A stretch of 64,000 bases of DNA from a virus (IMGVR_UViG_3300021387_000164:35056-99055); one strand, 5' to 3'. Shown: positions 7,599-37,100, counted from the first letter of the stretch. Made by a program: numbers and translations. Notes: generated from the sequence alone by a model not told the origin.

Positions 7599-9662
7599 AT
7601 GGTAGACTTTAATAAGAAACTAAAAAATACAGATAAATTCCGCTAGGCGGCGCTATTTTTTAAAGAACATAATTGTTACACGCTGGCCCCGCGAGGTACT
7701 ACAGATTACATAAAATATTGGGAGCAGGAAGCTGAGCGTTGTATAAACGGATACGTCGCTGATGATGGAGATTCTATTACTGGTTACCATTATTTCTACT
7801 TAAATTACAGCCCAATTATTAAACGTGTCGATGTTCAATATACAGATAGATTCGGCAACGTTAGAATTAGAAGAGATCGTGTATTAGATTTCCCAGACTT
7901 CTGGGATGGTGATTACTATTTCTTTCAAGCTGTAGAAGAGGCCGAGCAGCAAGGTAAACACCTTGCTGTTCTTAAGGCCCGTAAAAAGGGATTTAGTTTT
8001 AAAGGCTCATCAATGCTTGTTAGAAACTATGCCCTTGTAAAAGAATCAAAAAACTTCGCTATTGCATCAGAGTAGAAATTCCTAATTGGTGATGGTTTGT
8101 TGACTAAAGCATGGGAAATCATGGACTTTATTGACAAACACACAGAATGGGCTAAGCGAAGATTAACAGCTACTCGTATGGAGCGTGTGTCCGGATTTAA
8201 AGTTAAAGATGACCTTGGTAGGGAAACTGAACAAGGATATAAATCTGCAATTACTGGCATGACGCTTAAGAACGATCCGGAACGTGTCCGCGGTATTCGT
8301 GGAAAGCTAGTATTATTTGAGGAGAGTGGTAAATTCCCAAACCTCGAAACGGCTTGGCGTGTAAGTCAGCCTTCTATGGAGGATGATAGCGGTACAGCAT
8401 TCGGATTGATGATCGCTTTCGGTACTGGTGGTACGGAAGGCGGACAATTTGACGGACTAAAGACATTGTTTTATAGTCCAGAGGCATATAATGTATTGAG
8501 CTTTCCTAATATATGGGACGACAACGCTGAGGAAACAAGATGTGGTTACTTCTCTCCGTTCTACTTGAATATGGAGGGTTTTGATGATGATGGTAACAGA
8601 ATCTTCATGGACAGTGATGGAAATAGTATGGTCGAGAAAGCCATGAATGATATCATTGCCAAACGTAATGAAGTTAAGGATGGCGGTGCATCACAAACGT
8701 CTATCGATAGATTCATTTCAGAAAGACCAATAAAACCTCAAGAGGCCGTCTTAGAGCTCGGTAAAAATATATTTCCTAGAAAGCTTCTAATGGATCAATT
8801 GACTCGTATTAGAACGAATAAAAAACTATAGCACATGAAACATATAGTAGACTTAAAATGGGGTGCTAATGGTACAGTAGAAGCTGTGGAAAAAAAGGTA
8901 GGAGATATAACTACTTATCATTTAAAGAAAGATGACAAACCAGAAGGATCTGTAGTTATCTGGGAATACCCGGTCCCGGACCCGCCATTGGGATTATACA
9001 TTGGCGGTTGCGACCCGTATGATCATGATGAGTCATTCACTAACTCCTTAGGATCGACGTTCATATTTAAACGCGTTAGAGCTGGAGAAGCGTGGAATGA
9101 TGTAATTGTAGCTGAATATTCAGGTAGACCAGATACAGCAGAAGAATACTACGAAAACGTGCGCAAACTTCTTATGTTTTATAATGCACGTTTGTTGTTT
9201 GAGAATGAACGTAAGGGTATATATCCATACTTCACTAACAAACACTGCGATTACCTTCTAGCAGATCAACCTGATAAAGTTATATCAGAAATATTTAAGG
9301 ACAGCAAAGTATCAAGAAGAAAAGGCTGTCACATGACGAAACAGATTAGGGCGTACGGAGAAGGTTTAATACTCGAATGGTTAATGGAAGAGTATGAAGA
9401 AGGACACCTTAATCTAGAAAGAATATACAGCGAACCTCTAATAGAAGAGCTTATAGAGAACGATGGCGTAAAGAACGTTGACCGACTAATTGCTCTATGT
9501 ATGGTTATGCTATACAGGGAAGAACTATATTAGGTAAAGGTTTCTGCTGCAAAAGAACAAAATAAACAGGTTGAACTCTTCGAACTACCGTTATTTAGTC
9601 AACGATACTGGGATGCTGATAATGACGGCGAGAAAGATAATATACCTTTATTTAGCTTTTAA
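7599..9662 (+). CDS. terL: Terminase large subunit, 687 aa (TAG at 7644, 8073, 8829, 9531)
   Basis: Continuous frame MVDFNKK...; Walker A-like LKARKKGFS, Walker B VLFEESG, FGTGG, nuclease motif YIGGCDPY; ends TAA 3 nt before the portal ATG. Confidence 0.92.
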
Positions 9663-9665
9663 CAT

Positions 9666-12149
9666 ATGGTTAGAGTAGAAGATAATTTATATAACTTAAC
9701 GTTTCCACAACAGAAACTGCCACTTAAAAAGAAAGATGAGCAGTGGCAACACGATTGTGTGAACTTTATTATAGGCGAGGGAAACGTGGTGTCTGGTGGT
9801 GTGACCAAGGCACGTTTCGGAGAGATATAGACCTACTACAACCTTTATAATTCTATATTTGATGAGAAAGATTTTAAGCGCATTACAAATCCGTTTAAAG
9901 TTGAAGATGGATTTCCCGCTACTCCTCAAGATTTCAATATAATAAGGCCTAAGGTAGACCTCCTTATAGGTGAAGAGACAAAGAGGCCTATGAACTTCAG
10001 GGTGGTGAGAACGTCACAAGAAGCCGCATCAGAGTTAATGGATAAAGAGAAGGATCTGTTAATACAATATGTAATGGCGTCCATCACAGCTAGAATGGGA
10101 GAAGAGGAAGCTGCTCAATTTCAACAGCAATTGGAGAATGGCGAAATAATGCCGCCTGAAGCAATTGCTAAATACATGAATAAGGATTATAAAGACCCTG
10201 TAGAAAATACAGCATATCACACTCTCGTACATTTAAGAGAAAGACTCATACTGGATAATGAGTTTATTAAAGGTTGGAAAGACGCACTTATTTCTGGTAT
10301 TGAAGTATACTATGTTGGTGTACTAAACGACGAACCATATCTAGAAAGAGTAAATCCAATGATGTTCTCTTATGATAATTCACCGGACCTTGAGTTTATT
10401 GAAGATGGTTCTTGGTGTTGTCGTAGAATGAGAATGTCCGTAAGTGAGATTTACGATAGATATTATAAAAAGCTGTCAGAGAAAGATTTGAATAAACTGA
10501 CAGAAATGCTTACAGGAAAGTCGGCCAACGATTTGGGCGAGAAAGACCCGGTTGACAATTTTGGCGGCGGCATACAGATGCATATATACGACAATCCATA
10601 TATGGATCAAAAATCAAGGTATGCAATTAATGTATGGCATTGTTGCTGGAAGTCGTTTAAAAAGATATACTATGTAACATACTTCGACGAAGCAGGACAA
10701 GCACAGGTGGAAATAGAAGACGAGTCATATAAAAAGACTGGAATGGAAATTTCCGTTGAACCAGATTGGATTATAGAAGTTTGGGAAGGATATCGTGCCG
10801 GAACCGATCTTTATTTTGGTATTCAACCTATCGAATATCAACACGTATCTATTGATAATCCAAATTCTCAAAAGCTTCCATATTGTGGATGCGTTTATTC
10901 TAATACCAATAGTCGTCCTAGGTCCCTTGTTAGTATCCTTAAACCTTTACAGTATATGTACATTGTACTTTGGTACAGACTGGAGTTAGCAATCGCAAGA
11001 GACAAAGGTAAGGTAATTAATATGGATATTACTCAGATACCTAAATCAATGGGTATCACTCCAGAGAGATGGATGCACTATTTGTCTTCTGTAGGTGTTA
11101 ACTTTGTTAACCCATACGAGGAAGGTGTTCAAGGTCGAGAAGGAGGTCGTTCTGCAACATTCAATCAATTCTCGTCAGTAGATTTGACAATGTCAAATGT
11201 TATTGCTGAGTATATTCAGCTTATGGATAAGATTGAACAGCTTGCGGGCACTATATCTGGTATCACAGAACAGCGTCAAGGAGCTATCAGTTCTTCTGAA
11301 CTTGTGGGCAATGTAGAGCGTTCTGTTGTGCAGTCTTCGCATATCACTGAGCCTTTATTCTGGGTACACAATCAATGTAAACGCCACGCACTAAATATGT
11401 TGCTCAATACAGCTAAAGGTGCTTGGGAGCAATCTGGTAAGAAGAAGCTTAGTTATATATTTGATAACGGCGAGCGTGCTTACATCGACATTCAGGAAGA
11501 CTTCTATTATGAAGATATGGATGTATTTGTAAGTGATACTTCTAAAGACCTAGAAAATATACAAAAGCTTCAACAGCTCATTCAACCAGCTATGCAAAAC
11601 GGTGCTAGCCTATTAGAAGCTGCAGAGGTACTTACAAACGACAACTTCAACATCATTAAGCAGAAACTTAAGGAGATGCAGGAGCGTCAAGAGCAAATGC
11701 AGCAGCAAGCTCAACAAGCAGAACAGCAACAGGCTATTCAGCTGCAGCAGATGCAGAACGAACAGCGTGAACAAGAGCTTATGCTTGAAGAGGCTAAGAT
11801 GGAGCTTGAGCGTTACAAGATTGATGCTGATAACCAGACTAAGATTGCAGTTGCTGAGATTAGTGCATACCGTGGTACAGAAGAGAAGGACGCTAACCAA
11901 AATAACGTACCTGATCCAATCGAGATTGCTAAGGATGCTACACAGCAACGTAAGATTGCATCTGATGAGTATACTAAGCGTTATGAATCTCGTCAGAAGA
12001 AAGAGATAGAAGACAAGAAGATTGATCTTGAGCGTGACCGTATGAAGCACGAGATGGAGCTGTAGAAGGCTAAAGACGATGCGGCTTTAGAGCGTGAGAA
12101 GATTAAAGCAGCCACGGCAAGGGTAAATAAGGTCTCAGGCGAGAAGTAA
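9666..12149 (+). CDS. Portal protein, 827 aa (TAG at 9828, 12063)
   Basis: FPQQKLP N-terminus, FNIIRPKVDLLIGEE, ISGITEQRQGAI, Gln-rich C-terminal coiled coil; follows terL. Confidence 0.88.
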
Positions 12150-12151
12150 TT

Positions 12152-12355
12152 ATGGAACGAATAAAATATTATTTCAACGTTGCATTTATATCTGCTGTAC
12201 GCTGGCTGTATAATCATTATATATTGTTTAATAAATTTCTTAGAGGCAGAGCCAGAAAACAATCACCTATACAAGAAATATTATTAGACATACTTCTTAC
12301 AGACAAGCCGATTGATGTGTACAAAGTATGTAATGATATACGTAATTCGAAATGA
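12152..12355 (+). CDS. Hypothetical protein (67 aa)
   Basis: Fills the gap, starts 2 nt after portal stop, ATGA overlap with next gene. Confidence 0.6.
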   Translation: MERIKYYFNVAFISAVRWLYNHYILFNKFLRGRARKQSPIQEILLDILLTDKPIDVYKVCNDIRNSK

Positions 12356-12522
12356 CACGCGCCGAAGAACAAGAGCTTCTATAGCTTACTAGAGAGAACA
12401 ATCAATTATTAAAACTTATACTAAGATTAGTTTAGCACGACGAAGGGAATGACTTCATGACCAACGTCGTTGCTAATCTACTTAGCAATAGAATAGATGG
12501 TTATGCGCAAAGATCCTACTGA
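12352..12522 (+). CDS. Small hypothetical protein, 56 aa (TAG at 12382, 12433)
   Basis: MTRAEEQELL*LTRENNQLLKLILRLV*HDEGNDFMTNVVANLL...; ATGA-coupled upstream and overlaps next start; invisible in code 11. Confidence 0.65.
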
Positions 12523-14296
12523 ATTTAGAGAACGCTTTAAAGCTTATAAGAACGGCAAAATGCCTTATAAAAATGGTAAGATTATAAAGAGCGACTACTA
12601 GGATTATAATCATACTATAGATTTTCTAGATAAACACGAAGGTTTTGAAGATCATGTTTATCCTGACGGAAAAGGAATTCCTACTATTGGTTACGGATTC
12701 ACTGATCCTGCTTATATAAAGATGAATACAATGTCTAAAGATGTAGCTAGGCAAATACTTCATAAAGAGCTTGTAAACAGAGATCGCTTTCTGAGTAGAT
12801 TAAAGAACTGGGATAAACTTGGAGAAGGAGGTAAAACAGCGTTGCGCGCTTACTATTATAATTATCCCGCAGGTTTTAAAAAAGCTACAAAGTTTATGTA
12901 GGCTTGGAATTCCGGTAATTATGAAGAAGCTATAAGACAAGTGAATGCTGGTTGGAACGATGAAGCTAATCGAGGTTTAAGAAATAGAAGAATAGAGGAG
13001 CAAGAATTGCTTAGAAATGATCCTTTTATAATGTCTGTTCTTAACGACAATTGGAAATTACCAGTCCCAAAATTAACTAAATAGAACGAAGAACTGTAGT
13101 TTAAACCTTGGTCTAATTATCATGGTACAGATTATCCTATAAATAATCCTGCACCATCTAGTATATCTTCTTGGAATAGTCTGCAGAGTCCTGCATATAC
13201 TCCAGTAGAATATAATGCTAGTCAGTCTTACTTAAGACTACCTAACATAAAGAATGTAACGGAATAGTCTATTATGACTCCTAAGTTTAAGAACGGTAAG
13301 CTTCCAGAATATGAAGATGGAAACACGCCTGTTACAACAGGAGGAGCCGGATATATTCCCCCAGTTCCAACGTGGAATTTTCCTACATCTAAAGAAGAGG
13401 CTAGATTGAGATTATATAATCAAGTAAATCCAAGTTGGGGTTTTACAGATGATACTATTGATGCGACAATAAACACTCTACTGTACAATAAAAATAATTG
13501 GTCTCACGATAAAAGATTTGTTACAGTAAAAGATCCATATGTAGACGGTGTTTGGGCTGAATATTTACAGATTCCGCAGGATAAACGCAGAAGTAAATAT
13601 AAACTAGAACCATCTGCATATAGACCTAAGATTGGGGACGAAAAATCTATATAGTATTATAGAGTTCCTATAGATACCCTTACAAAAGCTAAATTAATAC
13701 GAGAAGGTAGTACTCTTCCAATAGGAAAAAATAAATTATCTATTGCTTTAGGAGGTTACAATCACGGGGAGCATACTATAGGAAAAGGAATAGATCCGCA
13801 TAAAGGAGAATATATTTCATACTATGATAGATGGGATTTAAATCCTCTCAGTAGTAGATATTCTTCCGAAACCAAATTAAAAAACAATCGCATAATTAAA
13901 AAGTTAGGATTACTTGATAACAGAAAGCATGGGGATTTGTCTTTTGGTATTGGTAAACCAATAGACTTTTACGATAGAATTTATTTGGATAATTACTACG
14001 GAGTAGATTCTTCTGCTAGCCCTGGTACTTATTACGGCGGATGGCTACCAGAAATATTTGTTGACAGTTTTGGAACAGGACGTACTACAAATACAATGGG
14101 AGACCACACGGAGTTCGGAGTTCCTCAGTATGCTAACGGTAAATCTCCCATATATATTAAACCTGCTAATCGTGGTAAATTCACTGCACTAAAGAAACGC
14201 ACAGGACATTCAGCATCTTGGTTTAAGAAGAATGGAACTCCTGCACAGAAGAAGATGGCTACTTTTGCTTTAAATGCACGAAAGTGGTCGCACTAA
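12503..14296 (+). CDS. Modular protein with GH24 (T4-like) lysozyme domain, 597 aa (TAG at 12599, 12899, 13082, 13097, 13265, 13652)
   Basis: HEGFEDHVYPDGKGIPTIGYG fits E-x8-D-x5-T catalytic motif; GLRNRRIEE C-terminal lysozyme motif; frame continues through track ORFs 13274 and 13937 to TAA. Confidence 0.85.
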
Positions 14297-14338: not shown

Positions 14339-15514
14339 ATGGCAAAGAAAAAGAATACAATTCCGAGCGGATTTGAAGATATTCTCGGTAACGTCTATTC
14401 TAATGCTGAGCAAGGCGAAGGTATTACGAATATTGATGACATCAATGAATTCGATGATCCAATCGTTGAAAACGATAATAATAAGAACGTGCCGCCAGTG
14501 AATAATCCTGAGGACGGCGATAAACAAGGTCTAACTGACATAGACCCAAACGCACATGAGGACGATTCTCCGGAACCTCCTGTAAACAATCCAGAACCAC
14601 CAACAACCGAACAACCTGTAGATGATCCCAATAATACTGAAGACGATAATCAAAACCCTTCAGAAGAGGATATAATAGAGGGTCAGCAGGTAAGCCTTTT
14701 GTTTGAGGCTATCGGTAATTCGCTTGGGTGGAATATGGATGAGATTGATGACAAGGATAAGCCTGTCACTGTGGATGAACTTACTAAATATTTTAGTGAC
14801 GTAGTAGAACAGAACTCCAAGCCTGAGTACGCGGACGATCGTATACAGGCGCTCGACGAGTATGTAAGAAATGGAGGCAAGTTCGAAGATTTCTACCACA
14901 GACAGCAAGAGGCGCTTTCTCTTGATAACATCGATCTCGAAGACGAGAATAATCAAAAAGCAGTAGTTCGTGAGCTTATGCAGCGTAGTGGTTACTCAGA
15001 TGAGCTTATTAATAAGAAAATTGCTCGATATGAAGAGAGTGACATGCTGTATGAGGAATCAGAGGATGCTTTGGATAGATTAAAGCAGCTTCGTCAACAA
15101 GAAGTAGAAGAGACTCAGAGACAACAGGAAGAGTACGCTAGACAGCAAGAAGAGGAGTCTAGAGCATTCTTTAATACGGTTACTAAGGATATTAACGAGC
15201 TTACTAATATCAGAGGTATCGCAATTCCAAAGGAAGACCGTAAAGCATTGTTTGATTATATTTTCAAAGTAGATCAAAACGGAATGTCTCAATATCAAAA
15301 AGATTTTGCTAAGAATCAATCTAAGAACTTAATTGAGTCTGCATACTTCACAATGAAAGCCGATGCTTTAATTGCCAATGCTAAAAACACCGGAGAAACA
15401 TCCGCTACTGAAAAACTTAGGAAAATGTTAAGGCATAGTGCAAAGAATCATAGCACTTACAATGCCGATGATAAACAAAAGTCAGTAACAGACATGGTAA
15501 GTGGTATGTTCTGA
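14339..15514 (+). CDS. Acidic scaffold-like capsid assembly protein
   Basis: 391 aa, D/E/P-rich N-terminus, coiled coil, immediately upstream of MCP. Confidence 0.65.
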   Translation: MAKKKNTIPSGFEDILGNVYSNAEQGEGITNIDDINEFDDPIVENDNNKNVPPVNNPEDGDKQGLTDIDPNAHEDDSPEPPVNNPEPPTTEQPVDDPNNTEDDNQNPSEEDIIEGQQVSLLFEAIGNSLGWNMDEIDDKDKPVTVDELTKYFSDVVEQNSKPEYADDRIQALDEYVRNGGKFEDFYHRQQEALSLDNIDLEDENNQKAVVRELMQRSGYSDELINKKIARYEESDMLYEESEDALDRLKQLRQQEVEETQRQQEEYARQQEEESRAFFNTVTKDINELTNIRGIAIPKEDRKALFDYIFKVDQNGMSQYQKDFAKNQSKNLIESAYFTMKADALIANAKNTGETSATEKLRKMLRHSAKNHSTYNADDKQKSVTDMVSGMF

Positions 15515-15535
15515 CGCACACAATTATAAATATAT

Positions 15536-17059
15536 ATGAATAATAGTTTGCTTAATAATCTCCAGCTGTATCGCGGACGTCGTTTCAGCGACCTGGTAGA
15601 TGAGAATATGATTTCTAATGCGCTGCTGACCAAGCCTCATGAGGTATCTGGTCTGCTTTCACTGGTATTTGGTACAAAAGACGATGGTGTATCAACCGCT
15701 ATCGATTTGATTACTGGTGGTCTTGGCAAGACAATGATTATCGATAACCGTGAGTTTGAGTGGAGCGTTATGATCGACTCTGACCACGCTATCAACATTC
15801 GCTGGGCTAAGTGGAATGGCCAGGAGGTTTCTACTTCTAACTACTCTACAATTACTCCAGGTTTGAATGGTACTCCTATTTATCTTGCTCTTGAAGAGCG
15901 TTGGTTTGGCCCAGGTGCAATTCTCGCATTTGATGATTACAAGTTCCAGGTTCGTGTAACAGGTCTTCCTTATCAAGATGGTAGCTCTTGGGTATATGAG
16001 TGCTATGTAATCGATGGCGCACAGGCTTCTTATATTCCTGGTGAGTTCCTGCTCGCTGGTCGTCAGGTTAACCGTATTGGTTCAGCTTACGAGGAGTACA
16101 GCGATGAGGCTGATATCATCAACTATCAGACTCCATTCAAGATGCGTAGCCACCTGCAGACTCTCCGTCTGACATATGATATCACTGGTGATGCATATAG
16201 CACAGTTTTGGCTATTGCTCTGACAGATCCTGAGACAGGTAAGAAGTCTTATTTGTGGGCTGATTATCAGTATTGGAAGGCTCTGCGTGAGTGGAAGAAG
16301 AGAGAGGAGTATGCTCTCCTGTTCTCTAAGAGCAACCGTCTGAGCGATGGTACATATCTGAATAAGGGTACAAACGGTCGTCCAGCTCCTACAATGAGCG
16401 GTCTGTTTGAGCAGGTTAGTCCAGCTAACGTTCGTTATTACACAACTCTTACAGCTGAATTGCTCGAGGATTATCTGTTCGATCTGTGTTACAACATTCT
16501 TGGTACAAATGAGCGTAAGTTCATTGCCCTGACTGGTGAGATGGGTATCCGTGAGTTCGACCGTATCCTGAAGGAGAAGGTTGCTACATTCAATATGATT
16601 GATACACACTTCGTAACTGGTTCTGGTCAGGATCTGGCTCTTGGTGGTCAGTTCACAACCTATAAGATGACTAACGGCATTGAGTTGACATTGAAGCGTT
16701 GTCCTTTGTTTGATAACATGGAGATGTTCCGTCAGTTGCACCCACTGACAGGTAAACCACTGATGTCTTACACATTCCTGTTTGTTGACCTTGGTTCACG
16801 CGATGGTCAGGCTAACGTAGTAAAGGTTTGTCGTAAGGGTCGTGAGTTTGTACAGTGGTGTACTGCTGGTTCTGTAGCTCCTAATGGTTATAGCAACAAC
16901 ATTAACAATGTTCGTTCTAACAGCCGTGATGGTTATCAGGTACACTTCCTCGGTGAGGAGGGTATTATGTTGCGTAACCCATTGTCTTGCGGTATTCTGT
17001 ACTGCGACGCAGAAGACACAGAGATTGCTAACGACGGTAATGTTGCCGTAGGCGCGTAA
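15536..17059 (+). CDS. Major capsid protein (crAss-like)
   Basis: 507 aa, high-expression codon bias, no TAG, canonical position; motifs REFEW, AYEEYS, NSRDGYQVHFL. Confidence 0.88.
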   Translation: MNNSLLNNLQLYRGRRFSDLVDENMISNALLTKPHEVSGLLSLVFGTKDDGVSTAIDLITGGLGKTMIIDNREFEWSVMIDSDHAINIRWAKWNGQEVSTSNYSTITPGLNGTPIYLALEERWFGPGAILAFDDYKFQVRVTGLPYQDGSSWVYECYVIDGAQASYIPGEFLLAGRQVNRIGSAYEEYSDEADIINYQTPFKMRSHLQTLRLTYDITGDAYSTVLAIALTDPETGKKSYLWADYQYWKALREWKKREEYALLFSKSNRLSDGTYLNKGTNGRPAPTMSGLFEQVSPANVRYYTTLTAELLEDYLFDLCYNILGTNERKFIALTGEMGIREFDRILKEKVATFNMIDTHFVTGSGQDLALGGQFTTYKMTNGIELTLKRCPLFDNMEMFRQLHPLTGKPLMSYTFLFVDLGSRDGQANVVKVCRKGREFVQWCTAGSVAPNGYSNNINNVRSNSRDGYQVHFLGEEGIMLRNPLSCGILYCDAEDTEIANDGNVAVGA

Positions 17060-17076
17060 TCTTATTAATAAAACAT

Positions 17077-17120
17077 TGATGTCTGAGCCCCAGTTATAAT
17101 GGCTGGGGCGTTCAGCATCA
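17077..17120 (+). promoter_or_regulatory. Long intergenic stem-loop after MCP (no U-tract)
   Basis: TGATG..GCCCCAGTT-ATAAT-GGCTGGGGC..CATCA inverted repeat. Confidence 0.6.
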
Positions 17121-17142
17121 CAACATACTAATTATACTAATT

Positions 17143-17895
17143 ATGGTAGTTGAACTTAGAATTAAAAAGAAGAATCCCTGGGCAGGGTTAATTAAGTACA
17201 AGAGTTGTTTTGATTATATTGCTCCTTATTTTACTCGTTCCGGGTCGATTTATACGGGTCTCACCCCAGAAGATGAGAAATATTTTGAGAAAGCTTTAGG
17301 TTATCCTGAAGGACACCTTGCAAAAAGTTCAGATTTTTGGACAACCTTCTGTGTAAAAGTAGGTTCTCGTACACTGCTCCTTGACGATTCAATTCCACGT
17401 CAGGCAATGCTTATTAAGTTTCTTACTGGTCACAAGCGTGTAGCAACATCGCTGGATAGACTTGATGCCGGCAAAGATTATTTGTTGATTAATCGTGAGG
17501 CTGAGGCTGTAGAACAGAACAAACAGAATAAGCTCCGCCGTGACGCAATCCGTGAATTTGATAGTCTGTCACTTGAGCAAATGCGTAAATGTTTACGTTT
17601 GTTTGGTATGAATGCAGATAGAATGTCAAATGAGCTCGTAGAGTCTACGTTGTTTAGCATGGTTGATAAAAATCCGAAGAAGTTCTTTGATAAGTGGGTT
17701 AACAACAAGTCAAAGGATACAGAGTTCTTGCTTGAGAACGCTATTGCAAAAGGTGTTATTCGTAAGGATAAGACTCATTACTTCTATGGAACAGACATGT
17801 TCGCTGATTCATTAGACGATGCTATTGCATATCTTGACAGTAAGAAAAACCAAGATCTGAAGCTTTCTATTATTAACGAAACAAATAATAAGTGA
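17143..17895 (+). CDS. Conserved crAss-like protein downstream of MCP
   Basis: 250-aa ORF, synteny. Confidence 0.75.
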   Translation: MVVELRIKKKNPWAGLIKYKSCFDYIAPYFTRSGSIYTGLTPEDEKYFEKALGYPEGHLAKSSDFWTTFCVKVGSRTLLLDDSIPRQAMLIKFLTGHKRVATSLDRLDAGKDYLLINREAEAVEQNKQNKLRRDAIREFDSLSLEQMRKCLRLFGMNADRMSNELVESTLFSMVDKNPKKFFDKWVNNKSKDTEFLLENAIAKGVIRKDKTHYFYGTDMFADSLDDAIAYLDSKKNQDLKLSIINETNNK

Positions 17896-17915
17896 TCTAA
17901 TCACTAATATAAGAT

Positions 17916-18893
17916 ATGACGCATAACGACGTATATACTAAATTCATGATAGGGTATGACAAGGCTAATGTAACTTCGTCGTATCCAGCGTTAACAAAAT
18001 ATGAAGTTGCTACAATTCTTGATAAAGCGTACGATGCGTTAATTGCGTAGAAAGTTACAGGTAATAATCCAAGACGTGTTCCGTTTGAAGCCGACCAAAA
18101 GCAAATAGCCGACTTGCAAAAACTTATTACATATAAGAAAGTGCAATTTAAACAGGCTATTGACGGACAGTATATGGAAACGCAAAATGTTAGTGAATTC
18201 GATCTTCCAGAAGACTTTAAGTATTATGTTAGATTGTTATTAGAATATAATACGAACGATCCAACGGAAGATCGTGTTTACGAAACAGCTGTATTTTCTC
18301 CCAACTCGATTACATACATTGGGCAAGACGACGATAAGTGGGTGAGCCTTAATGAAGGCTATAAAGCAACCAATCCAGACGAACAGCGTGAAATACAGCA
18401 GCAATTTGGGGACTGGATACAGTGGAGAAATCTTTATTATGCTACTGGTATTGAAGATATAGTAAATACAAATCTCATGATTGCTGAGAATTCTGACGGT
18501 AAGCCTTATGACAGACGACAAGTCAGAATGCTCCCGGTTAAACTTGTATCGCACGACATAGCTGAAAAGTTTATAACAACAGCATATAATATGCCGTGGG
18601 TAAAGAACCCTGTTTGCTATATATACAATGACACAGTTGCAGTTGTATATGACGCGTTAAGAAAACCTAACGTGGAGCCAGAAGATATCGCACATTTTGT
18701 TTATATTCGTGATCCAAAGAAATTTGTTACGAGCGATCCAAATGTGTGTGACTTCTCCAGCGCCACCGAGATGGAAATATCCGATACTGCCTCTGAAGAG
18801 CTTATAAATCTTGCAATATCATTTGCATTAGAAAACACAGAGTCTTCTGCTAGGTTGAGTACTAAACTAAATATGAGAGGGCTTGAGTCATGA
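17916..18893 (+). CDS. Virion ring/neck protein, 325 aa (TAG at 18048)
   Basis: MTHNDVYTKFMIGYDK...ALIA*KVTGNN in frame with track ORF 18114; paralogous features with the next two genes. Confidence 0.7.
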
Positions 18894-20292: not shown

Positions 20293-20371
20293 TAATTTTA
20301 ACGTGGAAACCCCAGCTAGTTAGGTCTAGCCTTTGTGTATAGGGGGAGTAGAAAAAATTAAATTTTAAATT

Positions 20372-21418: not shown

Positions 21419-21439
21419 TTTTAAACTAAATATAAAATC

Positions 21440-21476: not shown

Positions 21477-21492
21477 ATCAACATATTGCAAT

Positions 21493-24762: not shown

Positions 24763-25195
24763 AAAATCGTTGACGTTCTTGGATATGTATAAAACGTTGC
24801 CCATAGAGCTTGATTACAGCCTATATAAACGCATATTAAGCGCCATGTGCACAATTATCCTAGAACACGTATTAGAAGGCTCAGAAGGCTTTAAAATGCC
24901 TTATGGACTAGGGTTTATACAGATAGGTAAATATCAACCTAAGACGCTTACTCCAGATTCGTTATCTGTGGATTATAAAGCAAGTAAAGAATACAATAAA
25001 CGAATATATCACTTGAATGAACATTCAGATGGTTATAAATATAGACTATATTGGTCTAAAATACCTCGCACATTCCCAGACAGATACAAGTATTCGTTAA
25101 ACCTAGTACGTAAAAACAAACGTAAATTAGCTCAACTAATATTCAATAAACACGATTATATAAATATAAATGATATACAATTATACAAAGTGTGA
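24752..25195 (+). CDS. IHF/HU-like DNA-binding protein of crAss tail module
   Basis: FKMPYGLGFIQI HU-like strand, basic; synteny. Confidence 0.7.
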   Translation: MKNKKSLTFLDMYKTLPIELDYSLYKRILSAMCTIILEHVLEGSEGFKMPYGLGFIQIGKYQPKTLTPDSLSVDYKASKEYNKRIYHLNEHSDGYKYRLYWSKIPRTFPDRYKYSLNLVRKNKRKLAQLIFNKHDYININDIQLYKV

Positions 25196-26114: not shown

Positions 26115-29100
26115 TAACAATAATTCGCAAATAAATTCCTTTGTTAAGGGAATGAATTCTGACGCTGCGTACGATCAGATAGAGAATACATAGTACGTAT
26201 TCGGGCAGAATGTCAGAATAACTAAAAATCAGTCTTTGGGTGGTTTTGCGGATTATTCGTCAGTGCATGAAGGAATAGTTGGTCCTGTGTTATCTGGAAC
26301 ATTGGTTGATACTGTTGATTTAAACGCTAATTATAATATACTGTCTATAAAAACAGTAGACAACTTAGGTGTTATTGTACTGAATCAGAAGAATACTAAG
26401 AATATTAAGGTTTATAGATTTGAGGTTAACATTGATGATGACAGCCACATTTCAAAACCATTTGAATTAGTATGGACATATGATAATCTTTGGTCTGGCG
26501 ATGTGCCAGAAAAGATATCGACTGTTTTATACAAAGAGTTGGATAATGTAATAAAGTTTTATATTGCTACTGGAGAGCATCCAATATTAACTCTTAGGGT
26601 CGATGATGATGGTGTAAGCAGATACCCATCAAACAAAAACATGAACCCAGATGACCTTATAAACAATAGAATTGTTCCTAATGAACGTATATACATTAAA
26701 CAGGTTATCACAGGTCGTTTACTTTCATCACAAGTACAATACACATATCGATATTATAACAAATACGGCAATTCAACGCAATTAGCTCCGTTAACAAATA
26801 AGATACAAGTAATCGACCCCTCTAGATCAAAAGAAACAGGTAACGCCGAAAATACTGAAACGTCTATTGGTTTTATGTTGGCAATCAATACCGACGAATA
26901 TAAGGACAAGTTCAATAGAATTCAGATATTTAGATTGCAGTATATTAAGCCAGGTGAGGATGCTGAAGTGTCGTTGATATATGACGATAAATTTTCCAAT
27001 ACAACAGAGTTTGTTCTCAATGATGTTGGAATAGAACCTTTGCAAAAGTATACGATGGAAGAGTTTTCTTCTATGCAAGGTATTATTCTTATTCCTCAGG
27101 TAATCGAGCAAAACCAAGAATACATGTTCTGCGCAAACGTAAAGGATGATACAATCATACAAGACTTTACGGTGGAGCAGAATGATAACAATGTTGCCTT
27201 GGTTAGTACGGATGTAATGTTGGATACGTTTAATTACGATTACGGACATATTCCAGCTGAGACTACACAAAAATATCTCGGTTCGAATATTAACATTAAA
27301 GATTATAAAACCGGTAACGATATTATGCCGGTAAGTGAATATATTGACCGTCGTGGAATAAATCCAAGCAACGTTACTGCATCGTACAACGATATGTTTA
27401 CTTCTAGTTTGTTAAGGTCGTTGAGACGCGGCGAGGACTATAAATACGCAATTATATTCTACGATAAATACGGAAGACGTTCAGACGTACAACCAATAAA
27501 TGATTTTGTACATGTTCCGCGTATTGACGAACAAGATGGTACACCACATTTCATTCAAAACTAGGACTTTAGCGTTAATGCAAACCCAATTGGTGTACAA
27601 ATTACATTACCAAATATAAGTGGTAAATATGTCGATGATGGCAACTTAAAAAATATAGTAGGTTGCTAGATTGTCAGAAGAAGTTCGTCTGAGATATATC
27701 AGAATACACTTCTGCAAGTTGTATTATCTAGACCAGTACAGCAACCGTTACTTGAAACATCGGTAATTGATCCATCCACCATTACAGAGGATTCTACTAA
27801 AAAGTCGCCGTTCTATCCAACGGGGTTGTTAAATACTAAAGACATGTATATAACCCCACACTACTATAATCCAGACATTGCTTATTATGACGTGTTAAAA
27901 ACGCGAACGATGAATAAGCGTCTTTACCAAATATTTTCATCTGAAATAGACTTTAGACGTGACGACGTTCTGTCTAAGTTAGGTCTTTCTGATTTAAAGA
28001 TTACGCCGTTAATATATATAGATGGTGTATATGGTAAATACAAAAATGCAACGTATAGTTTTGATGGTTTGTACGGAGGAGGTTTTAACATATTCACTGA
28101 TGGTATTGGGTTAGGAAGAGATGTTGTGAAAAAGTTAACAACAGATGAAAAGCAATCTACACACTGGGTATTCAACTTTTATAAACAGCTGTACGAACCA
28201 CAACGCGTAGAACATCCCATCAAGCAAGTAAAAGATGTTAAGATGGCAAGCTGGGACTCTGGTTTTTCAGATGTAACTTATCAGGACTTAGATATATACA
28301 CCGCCATTAAAAAGTATAGAAGTCATACTACAAATATTGATTCTTACTTATATAACAACTGGGTATCATTTGGTAAGTATGACCTTAGAGCTGGTTTGGA
28401 GGGGCAACCCAATATGGAAGATTATCCTGGAGAAGAGGCTCAGGAATATCTTGCTGAACAAGCAGACTACTTACAATGGTTGTATAGGGATGGGTCTTAG
28501 AATAATGTTAGACGTGGATATATTGGCCCTGGACCATCTTGCTTCTTAATTGCTACTGATTCAGATGTTACTGACACGATGCAATCTCCGTACGTACAGA
28601 CAGTGTTGTGTAATATAACACATACTCCGAAAATAACAAACGTACAATCGGCACAGACAGAATAGTACTACGGTTTTGGTAATTATTTCCGTCTTGGTTA
28701 TGACGATGATACACAATCTTTATATGTAGTAAACCCAGACAATAGTTCGGATAAAAGTGGTAAAACAATGATTGTGTTTGATGGAGATATTTATATAACT
28801 CCGCACGAAATAACAACACAATTTAAAACATACGACTTCCAGTCTATTGATACATTGCAAAGTACGCAGATTACAAATTATGTTCCATTAGAGTCTAAGG
28901 TAAATACTTACCTTGATTATGGAATGAACTTGCGTAATACAAACAGTGAGAACCTTTTGTATGAACCTGGATCTATTGACGGTGTAACAACGCAGGAAAG
29001 ACCACTTCATCAATACAACATGGTTTATTCTGATAACGATGCATCTAATGATGTATTCACACTTATCAGTACAGATAAAGATGAGACAAACAATTTTAAA

Positions 29101-30123
29101 CAGCGTGCTTATTATTCTGAATTAAAAAGCAACGGAGAGTTCATAGATAACTTCTTGATATTTAAAGCTGCGCAGTTTATTGATGTGGATAGTAGATATG
29201 GTCAGATAACGCAAATATTAACAGACAAAAACACGCTGTATTATTGGCAAGATCAAGCATTCGGTAAGTTTAGTGTGAACGAGCGTTCTCTTATAAACGA
29301 CCAGAATAATAATACTATTATGCTTGGTCAGGCAGGTATCCTTTCGAGATACGATTACATGTCTACTAAATATGGTATGCGTTTACACGACCTATGCGGA
29401 ATGGTTACAAGTAACGGGTTGTTCTGGGTTGATATAAATAATAAAGCGGTTGTTGGTATATATGACGGGCAAGTAGTCAATTATGGCGAACGTATTGGTG
29501 TGCAAAACATAATTAATAACAAGATAACGATAGATGTCCCATATGTTGATTATGATTTACAAAATGACGAATTGTTGTGTAAATGTTTAAGAGACGGAGA
29601 GCAAATCGTATTCAATTTAAAATATAACATTGCTACTTCTATATATACTAGAATATATGATGCTACGTTCTATATTAAAAACCATTTATATAGCATACAC
29701 AACGTTGACAACAGCACAGAATATCATATACACCGCATAAATTACATCAAGCATTCCAACAATCAAACTTATTTGTCTCCAATTAAACTTGAGTTTGTCG
29801 TCAACCCATCTGCATCTATTACTAAAGTATTTGATTCTCAACAAATTGTTCCTATTAAGATGTCCAGCGAAGGGTCTTCTGAATTTATGAATAACATAAA
29901 CATGCAGTTCCAAACAGACATTTATGATAGAAACTCTTACGACGTTGAAGCATATACTGATAGAGAAGGAAATCTTATCTATAATATACCAAGATACGAC
30001 AATCAATATTACGGATCTAGAATGAGAGGCAAGTGGATGAGAGTGGGTATTACTAAAACGCAACCCAATTATTTGTTTACTATATCTCACATCATAACTA
30101 AATTCAGACAATCCTTTAGTTAA
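26104..30123 (+). CDS. Tail stabilization (muzzle) protein, 1339 aa (TAG at 26191, 27562, 27667, 28498, 28663)
   Basis: NSFVKGMNSD start, SLRRGEDYKYAIIFYD, FDGDIY, SRMRGKW end; three track ORFs joined in one frame. Confidence 0.85.
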
Positions 30124-30125
30124 AT

Positions 30126-32123
30126 ATGAAAAACAATAAAAGAAAGAAGTTACCAAGATATTGGCTTGGTACTAGAAAACCTACATCGTTAGGCTATCAA
30201 CCCAACTATGGGATTGGAAATGCATAGTTTACGAGCGTAGAGGGAGAGGATATAACACCAGAGGTAAAAGCTGCAAAACGTAATATTCTTCCAAATACAT
30301 TAAATAAATTAACACAGTCGCTTACACCGACTGTAAGCATCCTACAGAACGCTGCACCAATTACAAGTGCGATTGGGTCAAATGCAGCAAGAGCTGCATT
30401 AAGGCGTGCCGGACAGTCTGCAGCGCAAATCTTACCAGATGTAGAGGTTGCATCCGCTCCTGGAGCTTTAAAAGCTGCTGAAACAGGTGCCGAAACAGGT
30501 GTAAAGAGTGGTACTAGTGCAGTATTAGGTACAGCCGGAACAGCGTTATCCGCATTAGGTGCTGCTTATGGTACTTACGATATTATCAATCAAATTAGAA
30601 ATGCTGGTGATATTCGTAGCGCAAGAGATATGTTCAATACGCGTTCTACTAATACTTATACAACCGACCAAGGCAATCAATATACAGAGCATAGCGGTTT
30701 AAATGAGAAAAGCGAGATGGCGTATGAGAAAGCTCAGCGTTTGGCAAAGCAGTTGAATTTTGGCGTAAGTACAACCAGTACTGGTGCATCTGTTGGAGCT
30801 CTTATCGGAAGTTTAGTTCCTGGAGTTAATTTACTTGGTGGAACTCTTATTGGAGCAGGATTAGGAGCTGCTATTGGAGGCGTCGCAGACCTATTTGGTT
30901 TTGGAGATAACGAAGAAGAGATCAAGGAACAAATGCGGCGAGTAAATGACATCACCGCTTTGCAAAACAGACAGAGTCGTTCTGCTGCAGAAAACCAAGA
31001 CATTAAGGATCAATTCTATAGTGGGTCATCGTCTGCTGCAAAAGGTAAGCGTCCAGTATAGAGTCCGTTCGGATTAATTGATAAGAAAGCCACAGCAAGA
31101 GTTTCTAATGGTGAAGTGATTGGAAACTTCGAAGACGGCTATGTAAGCAGAGTGCCAGGTAAGAAAAACAATAAGGATACTAAACTTGCAAACCTTAAAA
31201 GCGACGATTTTGTTATCAGTAACAAATATGGTTTATCAGATTATGCCGCTGAAACAGGTGATTATGTTGGAGCATTAAATATGCAAGATATACTTATGAA
31301 CTAGAAAAATAAAAACTATAAATGCGGAAAGATGCCAAAGTATGCTCTCGGTACTTTAGGTGAATACGCTCTTGCTACACTTCCGCATGTAACTTCGTAT
31401 TTCTCTAATCTGGCCCAATATAATAGAGCAAAACACGCTGATACGTATGTTCCACATATGGAAATACAAAATCCACAAACTGCTGCAGCAATTAATCAAG
31501 TGATGTCTGATATGATTGACCCAAGAGAATATCTGAATCAATCTAATAGAAATTACAGACAAGCTGCTTGGAACATACGAAGAAATCCTGGTATTGGTCT
31601 TGGAGGCAGAATGGTTATGCTTGATGCTTTGACTAGAGCTAAGCTTGCACAAGATGCCGAGACCAGAATGAAAATAGATGAAGCTAATCGTGGTCAGCGA
31701 AACATCGGTGCTCAGATGAAAGATGTTGCTGGTAGAGACATTCTCGGTAAGAGATACGACCAGTTCTGGCGTAGACATGCCGCAGCTCAACAAGCAAATG
31801 CAGCCAAAGAAAATTGGCTCGCACAATACGGCAAAAACATGAACGATTCGTTTGGTTCTCTTGGTGCCGATGTACTGCGAATGATACAGTATAATCAAGC
31901 TAAAGATATACAAAACAGAGAGCTTGGTATATGGCAACAGAACGCCGATACAGAAAGAATTAAAGCATTGGGGAATACAGTTATTCCTACTGGTAGTACT
32001 TTAACAGGTGGTCAAAAATATCTCAAACTTACAAATCCATTTGTTGCTACTAGTCTTTATCCACAGTATCAAATGTACAAAGCTCCAATGTTAACACAGC
32101 CTTATATTAAACGTATTGGATAA
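30126..32123 (+). CDS. Virion cargo/ejection protein, 665 aa (TAG at 30225, 31059, 31302)
   Basis: Gly/Ala-rich hydrophobic hairpin, ARVSNGEVI motif; joins three track ORFs. Confidence 0.72.
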
Positions 32124-34114
32124 TGACATTTTTAGGACTTGAAAGACCGGTTGAATATGGAAGACAGTAGATATTCGACCCGAGTACGGCTAATATGGTT
32201 CTAAATGCTCAACAGAGTTATATTAATGCCGCAAGAAACGAATACCTCAGAGGACTGCAAGACTTAAAAGAATTTAATCATGAATATGGTGATTTTGTTA
32301 CACCTATAATGGCTGATCAAGACTGGTACAATGAGAATGTAACAGGTAAGGTTAAAAATTTTATTGATGACGCATACAGTCGCGGAATTGATCTTTTAAG
32401 AAGCCCAGAGGGTAGATTGGCTTTAGCGCGATTACAAAACAGTATAGACATCGGGTCTATTGCAAAGCTTAAAACAAGCGCAAGAAATGCTGAAAAGTTT
32501 TTGGAGTCTCGCCGACAGTTAGAAGCAAACGGTTTATATAATCCGGAACTTGCTAAATATGATGGTCCAGATATGACTACTTACCATACATTGGCACAGG
32601 GCGACCAAGCTGGAATGGGGATATGGGATAAGATGAGCGCTACCCCATACCACAATATGGCGGACTTTAGTAAAGCATTCTTTGATAACATTGCTCCGTT
32701 TGAACGTTCTAGAACAAAAAATGGAGTATCGTATACTATATCGGAAATCAATCCTCAAGATTTGTATAGAATCGCAGAGGCTCATTATAATGACCTTGTA
32801 AATACACCACAAGGACAGTTGATGTATAAAATGTACAGAGACCGACTTGGAAGTGATGCTGCAGCTAAACAAGCATTTAATGACGCAGTTGTAGCAGGTA
32901 ATTTAGACAGATTGAGATATTCTGATAATTATGATGAACGTAGAATTCAGCTTGAAAACCTCAATTTAAAAAGACAGTCTTTAGCTTTACGCAGACAAAT
33001 ACAACGGGCTAGGTAGAGAAACGATAATGGCGGTCCTGGCACGCAATTACAAGGTATTTCGTTGGCTAGAAGCTGGTATGATACAGCAATGGCTAAGGCA
33101 TGGAGCGCCAACGGTATCACCAAAGACTGGTGGAATATGGGAAACCAATATGGACAATTTGGTGATGAGGTGTCTAAAGTGTTTGCAGATTTTGGTAGAA
33201 CCTTCAGAGGCAAAAACGGTGACGAATTACAAAGACTGTTGATTACACCTACTGGAAAGAAGTATGGGGATATGATTAAAAATGCTTATGGAAAGCAAGA
33301 TAAATTAAATGCTGACCAAAAAGCACTTTTAAACAAGGCAAGAAAAGAAGCTGCTAATCTTACTTCTCCACAGGCAGTGAATAACATACAGGAGTCATAC
33401 AGAAGGCAATTCTCTATCGCAATGGATGGGCAGGCAGTTGCTAAGATATTTGGCACACCCATGTCTGATAATAATAGAGTAGCGAGATTAGCACCAGGAA
33501 TGGTTGACAGACTGTATGGTACAGACGATATAATTTCTAACACTGCTGGTTATACTAGAACACATACAAACACTGGTACAAAACAAATAAGAAACGCTAT
33601 TAAGAAGTACGGTATCGATCATACTACAGTTTCTGCTTTAGAGGAGGGATATGGCTCACTTAGAAAAAATAGTGGTAGCTTTGAGGTTATGCCTAGAGTA
33701 CGTATTACATGTACTGATGATGACGGTAATGTAGTATTCCAGAAAGATGCATATGGTGATATAAGCCTTGGTAGTGAAAAGACTAAAGGTGGTGCTTACG
33801 TTGGAAACTATAGAGAGCGTGGCGGTGCTATGGACCTCGGTGGTTATACACGAGCCAGCAATCCTACAATTGGTGTTGGCACATATCAAGGACCTGTACA
33901 AATAGGCGCACAGAGAATACCAGGACTAGTGTATACTCCAAAACAATCTACTAAATCATATAATATGTTCCCAGACTACAACAGATGGACAGGATTTGGT
34001 GTATGGGATACTGATTTAACGTCCGAAAGATTACATGCTGGACAATCCGAAAAACTCGGTACATACGGCGATCCTTGGAACTTTGATGACGGGGATTACT
34101 TATTAGATGAATAA
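32123..34114 (+). CDS. Virion cargo protein, 663 aa (TAG at 32168, 33014)
   Basis: TAATG-coupled start; joins track ORFs 32195 and 33062. Confidence 0.72.
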
Positions 34115-34141
34115 TATACATAACAATTAATATCTTGCAAC

Positions 34142-37100
34142 ATGCCAAGAAATAAACAAAGAGTAAATACTTCTTGGGCTGGCAGATATGCACGGGAAGC
34201 TTCAAATCGAAGATTTCTTGATGAAATTGACTATTACGACCGTGGTCTGCAGAAGGAAATACAAGCCTCTGCAGATCGTACGGCTCGTTTACAGTACGAT
34301 ATTGATGAAATGCGTGCAGATCGAGCATGGCGAGAAGCAGATCCAGAGGGATATTTTTACGAAAAAAGACAACGAGAGTTAGAAAGTAAACCTAAGACAG
34401 TTGGTAATTATCTTAAGAACTGGTGGGACACATTAGGTCGTAAGATGAATGATTTCCAAGCACAGGATTTCCAAGGTTATATGGACCGTTCTGACGAGTG
34501 GGAACGCTTAGCTAACTCTACAAAGCATTATTTTGAGATACAGGACGAAATTGACAACCTAAATTCTCAATTAGCTCAATGGCGACTTAATACACAGAAT
34601 GTCGGTAAAGCGCCAGCTGAAGAAATGCAGAAGGCATATGGAATGATTGATATGCTTGAAACGTAGAAAAACGCCCTACAACAGGAATTAATTAATTTAA
34701 AGCCTGATGTGGAGGCGTTTAAATCGTATATACCCAACTCTCTCAAGGCTGGCTATTATAATATTGTAGCTGGTAATGGCGAGAATAGTCTCTTATCTAA
34801 TAATAAATTGTTCGGTAGAACATCACAGGCTCATGACGAACTTGGGGATATTACTAGATTTACTACTTCGATGTTCTCTTCAAAAAGAACTCGTGCCGAA
34901 CAAAAAGCAATGCTTGATAGAGCACTTGCTGCAAAGCAGGAGAAATATAAAGAATGGCAAAAAGGTCTAGAGTATAACCTCAACGATAAGGAGAGTTATA
35001 ATAAAGTAGACAGATGGTTCCAACAAAGAGCTGACAAGGCCGGTACTGATATATTTGACAAGAACACATGGCTGTACGGGATGCCAGGACTTATTGCTGG
35101 TTCTACTTCTGGCATATCCAAAATACTCCCTGCTGCACTTACTGGTATTGCTACCGGTATAGCAACAGGTGGTGCTGGTAGTGCTGCATGGTTAGCTGGT
35201 GCTATTGGCGGTGGCGCTACATTTGGGTTGAACTACGGTGCTGGTGTTTCTGAAAACAACGCCGAAGTAGCCATGGCTTATAGTGAGCGTATTAAAGACT
35301 ACCTCCAGAGCCAAAAAGGCACGAAGGGATCTTTATATGACGATGTTATTGCAGAAGGTAGAAGAAAGCTTGGTTTAAGTCGTAGTGCAGCAGATGATGA
35401 CCAGATATTTGACCATTTCCGTAAAGGCGATTATACTGTAAATAATACAGCAGCAAACAAAAAGATGAGAGAACTTGCTGTTGGTATTGAAAGTCAATTC
35501 CAAGATGACATGGCTGCTACGACTTGGTCTGCTGGATTAGAAACTGCTCTTCAAATTATCCCATTTGGCGCAGCACTCAAGTTGCCCGGTAGAGCCCTTA
35601 GATATCAGGTACTTAAATCAGCTGCTGGTAGAAAAGCTCTCAGAAATGGTGCAGTTGAAACATTAGCCAAAGGTTACGAAATAGGTGCTGCTGCTAGTCC
35701 TATAGCAGGTATGCTGTATGCTCCCGTGCATTACATGATGACTCCAGCAAGAAATAAGGTAGGAAAGGCTGTAGCAGGTATCTTGGATGATTTCGCCAAG
35801 ACATCACACATGGTCGACCAAGTACCTTCAAAATTGCTTAGAAAACATTTTGCATCTTCTACTAGAAATAAATACTTTAGAGACATTGCTGGACGATGGG
35901 CATTAGCTTCTGCTGCAGAAGGTATTGAGGAAGGTAAACAACATATATCTTCTGAGAGATATAAGAATGGTTACTACACCGACGCTAAGATAAAAAGTAT
36001 TGGCGAGACCATACTTGACGACTTCATTGCTGGTTCTAAGAGTGCAGGCCTCCTGTTGGGTATGCCATTTGAAGGTGTAATGTCTGAGAAAGATAGAGAG
36101 GTATTAAAAGAAATCAAAGGTGGCTTTATTTTAGGTGGTTTACAGACAGCAATCGTAAACACAGCACAATCAATAGCACCATTTGTATCAGAACAAAAAG
36201 CAACGTCTGCTATTGTTAATAATGTGCTCAAAGATAAAGCAGCTAAGGTAGATAGATTAAACAAAGCCAGAATCTACGCAGAAGCAGCTAAGAGTCAATC
36301 TTCTTATCAGAATATTCTTAATGGGTTTGATCGCTTAAGACAAACAAACAAGGACGAGTATGATGCTTCTGGTGAGTACGGTATTGCACCAGAGTTGATA
36401 GACGATGAGGAAAATGCATTTAAGCGCATTGCTCAAATGTCAATCGACCCTTATACTATCAAACAGGCCAAATCTCAGGGCATAAGCACGACTGGTAGAG
36501 ATTATAATAACTTCGTAGCAGCTAAAGTTCTTGTAACAGATGAGTTAAATGAAGCTAGGGAGGTATCCGATTTAGCTAGAAAGAACCTTTCTGAGGCTGT
36601 ACAAAACGCTACTAAGCCGTTCCTTGACAACACCGTTAAGCAAATGGCGGCAGCAATGCCCGGCGCTAAAGAAAGCTCTGATGAAAATATTGTACCAGAA
36701 TTTAGCAATGCTGACAACTTCAATCAGCTTAACAACGTTGCGCAATACGTAGCTCTTCTTAAGATAAAAGACCAGCTTGAACTTGGTATTATAAATGCTC
36801 AGTCTGGTAGTCATAGAAAGACAGAAAGTATTCTCAATAAGCAGCTTACACAGGTAAACGATAGAATAAATAATCTAAAGCCTGTTATCAATAAGTATGC
36901 CAATGAAGATGAAACCGTAGATATCAATAATATTGAAAGCGTTGAGGTAAAGCTTGCTCTCCATAAAGATATGCACGATAACCTTGTCGAGGCATACCGA
37001 CAGTCTTTTATGGCTGACATGGACTTAGACCTTGCTATGCAGAATTACTCTCGCGTTGTTGGTGACGCTTATATTGGGGATAAAAAGATAGCAGATACTG

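Follow-up and report, generated by a model that had tools for sequence, protein, structure and literature searches.

Genetic code 15, in which the stop codon TAG is read as glutamine, is found in crAss-like phages and further phages of the gut, where it has been described as a regulator of late and lysis genes (Borges et al., bioRxiv 10.1101/2021.08.26.457843; Yutin et al., PMC7886860; Peters et al., PMC9523058). In crAss-like phages, Borges et al. found four families to be preferentially recoded with TAG, namely the spanin, an amidase, a tail tube whose gene follows that of the spanin at a distance of 1.1 kb, and a family of unknown function, and proposed that the stop codon blocks translation until the code is switched. 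Unlike the present work, that study compared genes with one another and did not analyze the position of TAG inside them, and an intragenic positional analysis of TAG was not found in the published literature. Here, we made such an analysis of the late genes of a phage represented by a 64,000-nucleotide stretch, the window (IMGVR_UViG_3300021387_000164:35056-99055, in our set G000:C1:35056-99055), and of its relatives in the family Suoliviridae. We show that TAG lies closer to gene starts than the other glutamine codons, that no such skew is shared by other synonymous codons while it recurs across the family, and that TAG is conserved at individual sites.

A second system of comparison is codon adaptation to nonsense errors (PMC13271495), in which the 5' part of a gene tolerates error-prone codons, the first ~10 codons show no effect, and adaptation rises along the gene, reaches a plateau and is stronger in highly expressed genes. 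The TAG profile reported here has a matching shape, and the effect is likewise confined to the error-prone codon; what was published for yeast is a slight shift in the use of sense codons, whereas our case concerns a reassigned stop codon in a phage and is much larger. As in published code-15 phages, the late structural and lysis genes of the phage carry in-frame TAG codons and the early genes do not, and, as in Borges et al., the spanin, the lysozyme/amidase and the tail tube ~1.1 kb downstream of the spanin are preferentially recoded here too. New here are the TAG-specific 5' skew within genes, the depletion of TAG beyond ~100 codons, and the conservation of TAG sites across genera.

The recoded late arm and its early TAG codons

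The window belongs to a phage record that is 99,055 bp long and has terminal repeats. By its nucleotide and protein matches the phage falls in Crassvirales, Suoliviridae, near Oafivirinae (cr272_1, Bohxovirus, cr131_1, cr7_1), with 74-77% nucleotide identity to these four. Relatives of its portal are encoded in 449 viral contigs, and the best 80 of these 449 (IMG/VR) are 76-88% identical. The late arm is a block on the + strand, 7599-53223, containing terL, portal, lysozyme, capsid, ring proteins, holin, a spanin-like protein, tail tube, tail stabilizer, cargo proteins and a giant protein of 4703 amino acids (aa). Its genes are long and tightly packed once TAG is counted as a sense codon. In alignments of the portal, terL, tail tube, ring and spanin proteins, the in-frame TAGs fall on conserved glutamine columns and are exchanged for CAA or CAG among relatives, identifying TAG as glutamine. 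There are 35 in-frame TAGs in 12 late genes, and only ~5% of the late-gene glutamine codons are TAG, the lowest value of all genomes compared, versus 10-42% in relatives. The TAG-bearing late genes, with window coordinates, are the following.

7599-9662, + strand: terminase large subunit, terL (PHROG 6681, E=1.8e-145); TAG at codons 16 (7644-7646), 159, 411 and 645
9666-12149, + strand: portal (PHROG 6547, E=1.7e-165, profile aligned from residue 9); TAG at codons 55 (9828-9830) and 800
12352-12522, + strand: small open reading frame (ORF) of 56 aa, ATGA-coupled to an unrecoded 67-aa ORF at 12152-12355; TAG at codons 11 and 28
12503-14296, + strand: lysozyme/endolysin-domain protein (PHROG 7 endolysin, E=1e-18); TAG at 6 of 16 glutamine codons, the first at codon 33 (12599-12601)
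17916-18893, + strand: virion (ring-like) protein g17916, with conserved N-terminus; sole TAG at codon 45 (18048-18050)
23370-24026, + strand: spanin-like/lysis-regulator-like protein, encoded downstream of the holin gene; TAG at codons 59, 66, 67, 112 and 152
24031-24762, + strand: virion structural (ring) protein g24031 (PHROG 9863); sole TAG at codon 32 (24124-24126)
25170-26114, + strand: tail tubular protein g25170 (cr53_1 orthologue annotated as tail tubular protein); sole TAG at codon 47 (25308-25310)
26104-30123, + strand: large virion protein/tail stabilizer; TAG at codons 30, 487, 522, 799 and 854
30126-32123, + strand: cargo-like protein g30126; TAG at codons 34, 312 and 393
32123-34114, + strand: cargo-like protein g32123; TAG at codons 16 and 298
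34142-48253, + strand: giant 4703-aa protein; TAG at codons 175, 1094 and 1192 among 188 glutamine codons

In 11 of these 12 genes the first TAG falls within the first 60 codons, and in g17916, g24031 and g25170 this early TAG is the only one. A reading of the sequence alone, from which this work started, had listed the same first-TAG codons, all of which were reproduced exactly, and had pointed to the same three genes with a single TAG; its count of 11 early-TAG genes stands, and its total of 13 becomes 12 when TAG-bearing genes are counted. When TAG was shuffled among the glutamine codons of each gene, only 3.9 genes were expected to have a first TAG within 60 codons (p<1e-5), and shuffling among all codons gave an equal outcome. 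Counted as codons, 11 TAGs lie within this range against 4.9 expected from the shuffle (p=0.001), and a stratified test gave 10 against 3.9. The cut-off of 60 codons was chosen post hoc, after the data had been seen; threshold-free tests on the window gave a van Elteren stratified rank Z of -2.86 and a Stouffer Z of 3.36 for the first TAG. The 56-aa ORF is uninformative for the 60-codon test, its entire length being shorter than 60 codons. Among the early glutamine codons of TAG-bearing genes there are 10 CAA and 14 CAG, showing no early enrichment of CAA.

The gene starts on which these positions depend are supported in two ways: every gap or overlap with the upstream gene is at most 28 nucleotides (nt), and the residues N-terminal of the TAG are conserved as protein across genera, with the portal profile already beginning at residue 9. 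The start of the lysozyme agrees with that of the orthologue in one relative (G003), and the spanin orthologue in cr53_1, annotated as LysB/FtsL-like, also adjoins a holin.

Two neighboring features were noted beside these genes. The pair of 67-aa and 56-aa ORFs (12152-12522) sits between portal and lysozyme, where cr272_1 has a 325-aa gene. Upstream of terL, at 73-3981, a gene of 1302 aa has its sole TAG at codon 747, which is not early.

TAG position across Suoliviridae

For comparison, late arms were taken from 12 near-complete IMG/VR relatives and from GenBank genomes of four Suoliviridae subfamilies; a search of viral contigs anchored on the tail stabilizer had given 4 loci, and whole late arms were taken from genomes instead. 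Genes were called from the most upstream ATG with TAA and TGA as stops, a procedure that reproduces the published annotation of cr272_1. The pooled tests comprise 17-18 non-redundant Suoliviridae, three close pairs having been thinned, and exclude Bohxovirus PV686213 (L086), for which the caller gave 58 short ORFs. Three members of Uncouvirinae and Boorivirinae, cr118_1 (L163), cr50_1 (L164) and cr10_1 (L167), use the standard code with TAG at gene ends only, and were used solely as evidence that some members of the family are not recoded. Recoding is patchy within Suoliviridae subfamilies, standard-code members adjoining recoded ones such as cr114_1.

Within genes, TAG lies earlier than the other glutamine codons (van Elteren Z=-6.5; 337 genes from 18 non-redundant relatives), with a negative statistic in 15 of the 18 genomes. 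The skew was seen in four subfamilies, among them Uncouvirinae (cr114_1), Bearivirinae (cr6_1) and Loutivirinae (cr53_1). At about 1.25-fold, it is modest in relatives. The ratio of observed to expected TAG is 0.98 in codons 2-10, 1.17 in codons 11-20, 1.30-1.32 in codons 21-60 and 1.35 in codons 81-100; it is about 1.0 in codons 101-500 and 0.88-0.90 in codons 501-2000. The early excess is larger at conserved glutamine columns, where 120 TAGs were observed and 71 expected. Between genomes, the identity of synonymous codons is ~0.50 and has thus reached saturation, so that codon choices are nearly independent between genomes.

Other synonymous pairs, taken from the same gene calls, do not behave in this way. 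The pair CAA/CAG gave Z=-1.2, TTG/CTG gave Z=+3.3, which is of opposite sign, AAA/AAG, GAA/GAG and TAT/TAC gave Z values of about 0, and TTA/CTA was flat too. Both leucine pairs share the first-position C/T change of TAG/CAG and are nevertheless flat or of opposite sign. CAA is enriched solely in codons 2-10 (observed/expected 1.19) and flat thereafter, whereas TAG is enriched at codons 20-100. Because CAA versus CAG lacks a bias like that of TAG, AT-richness at the 5' end does not explain the skew, and the alternative raised with the sequence-only reading, namely AT-enrichment or relaxed codon selection near starts, is contradicted by CAA, enriched only in codons 2-10, and by the flat profiles of the other pairs. 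The permutation of TAG among the glutamine codons of each gene, with CAA versus CAG as control, that had been proposed with that reading gave a significant skew in the window, the stratified rank test gave one in Suoliviridae, and the position profile of TAG is distinguishable from those of CAA and other AT-rich synonymous codons.

An origin of the skew in chance and artefacts, that is, in mis-called starts, the post hoc threshold, or statistics inflated by relatedness, is in our judgment most improbable and has been largely refuted. It could draw on the threshold having been set after the data were seen, on a caller that uses the most upstream ATG, and on a weakly positive result for phAss-1 (OQ749652), a non-crAss code-15 phage whose naive gene calls are unverified. 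For this phage 56 TAGs were found within 60 codons versus 46.4 expected (Z=2.2), with a van Elteren Z of -1.15, a weak signal that we counted neither way. The skew, however, persists in genes packed tightly on their upstream neighbor and when the first 10 codons are dropped, and the equality of the profile in tightly packed genes excludes an artefact of start calling. Further points against such an origin are the protein-level conservation across genera of the N-termini ahead of the TAGs, the significance of the threshold-free tests, the saturation of synonymous sites, and the flat controls from the same gene calls. On these tests we reject as causes start mis-calling, the mixing of gene lengths (Simpson effect), AT bias at the 5' end, a C-to-T mutation bias at the first position, and shared ancestry. 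The skew is genuine and confined to TAG, and it extends to the family as a quantitative rule.

A separate observation concerns the 3' ends. TAG is depleted there, with observed/expected ratios of 0.48 in the last 5 codons and 0.65 in the last 6-10 in pooled relatives, and likewise in the genes of the window, while CAA and AAA are enriched at gene ends and TTG/CTG is flat. This depletion may reflect A-rich gene ends that overlap the next start, or a special harm of near-full-length truncations.

A gate in every gene or graded tolerance

The ratio TAG/(TAG+CAG) in relatives is 0.63 in codons 2-20, 0.67 in codons 21-100, 0.49 in codons 101-500 and 0.46 beyond codon 500, and the leucine reference TTG/(TTG+CTG) over the same intervals is 0.56, 0.70, 0.72 and 0.78. 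In the window the TAG ratio falls from 0.50 through 0.37 and 0.22 to 0.05, a ten-fold gradient. Early TAG thus merely reaches the leucine reference, which argues for relaxed counter-selection and not for placement. These values read most simply as TAG being near neutral in the first ~100 codons and counter-selected later. The profile also matches that of selection against nonsense errors, being weak at the 5' end, absent in the first 10 codons and ending in a plateau, which supports tolerance of early TAG. The argument of the sequence-only reading that an early abort is a cheap one agrees with this profile and accounts for where TAG is tolerated.

That reading had gone further and had taken the early TAG of each gene for a selected translational checkpoint. 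Selection would then place a single TAG within ~60 codons of the start of every recoded late gene and keep it there, translation would be aborted early before suppression, and downstream transcription may also stop through Rho-dependent polarity, to which nonsense codons close to the promoter give rise most strongly. This fits the 11 of 12 window genes with an early TAG, the distribution of these TAGs at one per gene and the three genes in which the early TAG is the only one, and a few genes conform to it in relatives as well: TAG occurs within 60 codons of the tail tube gene in 17/17 relatives versus 7.7 expected and of the ring gene g24031 in 16/17 versus 10.0 expected, early TAG is well above expectation in g21493 (10/11) and in the giant gene (7/7), and it is raised in the portal and g24752 too. 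In contrast, terL (5/15 versus 7.5 expected) and the tail stabilizer (5/10 versus 6.2 expected) show no early excess in relatives, nor do g18890, g19603 (7/13) and the holin (4/8), all at or below expectation, and there are portal homologues without any early TAG. The evenness of early TAGs among genes is weak in relatives (Stouffer Z=2.2 with the cut-off K at 60 codons, 1.0 at K=100) and significant in the window genome only. Early TAG use does not rise above the leucine reference, and codons 2-10, the cheapest place to abort, are not enriched in TAG.

Ten late genes of the window phage, the major capsid protein gene among them, are without any TAG, which also speaks against a checkpoint in every gene. 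Seven of them form one block:

14339-22845, + strand: TAG-free late-gene block with g14339, major capsid protein (15536-17059), g17143, g18890, g19603, g20372 and g21493

The genes of the capsid and of other presumably abundant proteins are among those free of TAG, which would be in line with counter-selection of this codon. The mean TAG fraction is 0.50 for the spanin, 0.48 for the lysozyme, 0.33 for the tail tube and 0.33 for the ring protein, versus 0.00-0.07 for the capsid, g20372 and g14339. As a side observation, the glutamine codons of the major capsid protein gene and of g20372 (20372-21418) are almost exclusively CAG (CAG:CAA 15:1 and 14:0, zero TAG), and CAA is preferred in most other late genes, giving a strong, presumably expression-linked codon bias inside one phage arm.

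A rule of one gate per gene is therefore not supported as general beyond the window genome: the idea of a checkpoint would hold for a few lysis and tail genes with conserved early TAGs and fails for terL, the tail stabilizer and others without excess. Selection that places and keeps an early TAG in each recoded late gene seems unlikely to us as the general explanation. We are equally doubtful of its broader form, in which one translational checkpoint per gene, possibly acting through transcriptional polarity too, would hold back most virion and lysis genes until read-through, and the TAG-poor window genome, lacking a suppressor tRNA, would be the stripped-down core of that system.

Individual sites differ in how strongly TAG is kept, given the saturation of synonymous positions. 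At the spanin codons 59, 66 and 67, TAG is present in 16/17, 14/15 and 17/17 non-redundant genomes (47/49 in total), whereas the synonymous sites on either side vary (p=7e-5, 3e-4 and 5e-6, respectively, in a Poisson-binomial test). Codon 47 of the tail tube, in the column 'GAPMqY', is TAG in 14/18 genomes (p=2e-5 against the gene's own TAG rate), a marginal case weaker than that of the spanin, and codon 32 of the ring protein g24031 is TAG in 11/17 genomes, also marginal for maintenance. The 'ALIAqK' column of g17916 has TAG in 6/20 genomes. Among the early TAGs of the sequence-only reading, those of the spanin, tail tube and ring protein are thus among the ones kept as TAG, and those of terL and portal are not: terL codon 16 is TAG in 2/9 relatives that have glutamine there, and portal codon 55 in 5/15, neither beyond neutral expectation. 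The portal column is invariant as glutamine, and TAG, CAA and CAG interchange in it among the best 80 of the 449 relatives. Relatives of g30126 often have TAG at a nearby 'GYq' column, and those of g32123 have early TAGs at shifting columns inside the first 16 codons. The latter pattern, like the site conservation in spanin, tail tube and ring protein, would fit selection for an early gate, in this case with turnover of the site and maintenance of its presence. Taken together, the alignments point to a few positively maintained TAG sites, spanin codons 59, 66 and 67 and, as a weaker case, probably tail-tube codon 47. At the TAG sites of the window, relatives use TAG at a frequency of 0.54, versus 0.14 at columns where the window has CAA or CAG (p=1e-6). 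The TAGs of the window thus prefer columns favored by TAG in relatives, indicating that this TAG-poor genome has kept a core set of sites.

The range over which TAG is enriched, codons ~20-100, resembles the length of a codon ramp. TAG, as the slowest codon, could accordingly have been recruited to the first 30-100 codons to space ribosomes, an explanation that we hold to be very improbable: no other synonymous pair is shifted 5' in the same genes, the site-conserved TAG-TAG double of the spanin looks like a block, and the concept itself is contested, being treated as possibly technical in PMC13271495.

Decoding of TAG and its meaning for the phage

No tRNA with a CUA anticodon was found when the entire 99-kb genome was searched for tRNAs with ARAGORN and Rfam. 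The tRNAs that were found are Gln(UUG), Met, Glu, Ile and one more; a tRNA match at 58929-58999 of the window (- strand) was given by Infernal only (34.8 bits) and missed by default ARAGORN, and permissive ARAGORN settings returned only noise. A phage-encoded suppressor tRNA of this kind is frequent but not universal in code-15 crAss-like phages, and the absence of a CUA tRNA has been documented for some recoded Suoliviridae in the literature. Among the relatives, G002 and G004 carry a Gln-like CUA tRNA, and G001, G009 and G013 do not. As G001, G009 and G013 are nevertheless TAG-rich, the lack of this tRNA was rejected as the reason for the TAG poverty of the window genome. Some possible transfer-messenger RNA (tmRNA) genes were noted in passing: a sub-threshold Rfam match to a permuted tmRNA lies outside the window beside a tRNA-Met/Gln cluster (G000:C1:12243-12433, - strand; 40 bits, cut-off 47), and for two relatives the ARAGORN predictions include permuted tmRNAs that encode tag peptides (L138:1518-1900 in G001 and L161:1213-1590 in G013).

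In the early arm of the phage (G000:C1:1-27000, - strand), several ORFs have their only TAG a few codons before TAA or TGA, for example, when TAG is read as glutamine, at codons 224/229, 224/237, 149/149, 153/161 and 225/247. This suggests that TAG is a genuine stop in the early arm, and that the two arms use two codes.

Position-dependent selection against TAG as a leaky stop codon, together with a few positively kept sites, is in our view the probable explanation of the late-arm pattern. As long as the host retains release factor 1, TAG would be a leaky stop at which part of the ribosomes terminate. Such an abort would do more harm the longer the chain that has been made, since synthesis is wasted and truncated subunits could interfere in virion assembly. 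Selection against TAG would be weakest over approximately the first 100 codons and would strengthen beyond them, so that TAG would accumulate near gene starts. The filter may be steepest in the window genome, the most TAG-poor and one without a CUA tRNA, where mainly 5'-proximal TAGs would remain. At the three spanin codons, and probably at tail-tube codon 47, TAG would be kept by positive selection on top of this tolerance gradient, and the kept sites may be real translational blocks until read-through becomes available, in line with the idea of lysis timing published at the gene level.

Several points weigh against this explanation. In the window, 10 genes have exactly one early TAG each (p=0.0016 for K=60 and p=0.027 for K=100), an evenness that exceeds what a gradient of tolerance predicts and that hints at selection for presence. 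The profile in relatives is step-like, with a plateau to about codon 100, and not strictly proportional to position, and the ratio of observed to expected TAG returns to 1.02 beyond 2000 codons. The leucine pair used as a 'neutral' reference is itself under selection. The TAG-rich genomes G001, G009 and G013 show that the lack of a CUA tRNA alone does not explain TAG poverty. Finally, leaky termination, a cost rising with position, and delayed suppression or a temporal switch are what we infer from the patterns.

In bacterial operons, nonsense codons are most strongly polar on the genes downstream when they lie close to a gene start. By analogy with this classical polarity gradient, 5' TAGs would be the most effective block at the level of the operon.

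Our findings have some practical consequences. When genes are called in phages with mixed codes, TAG can be expected close to gene starts, and engineered amber-gated constructs would carry the least burden if the amber codon were placed past the first ~10 codons but not beyond codon ~100. For the biology of the phages, the timing of late and lysis gene expression has been ascribed to stop-codon recoding in gut phages, on evidence that has so far been at the level of whole genes. The positional rule for TAG would be the first sequence-level sign that TAG still acts partly as a stop during infection, with selection separating cheap, early read-through failures from costly, late ones. It suggests two classes of recoded codons, a few conserved 'lock' codons such as the TAG-TAG of the spanin, and many that are merely tolerated.

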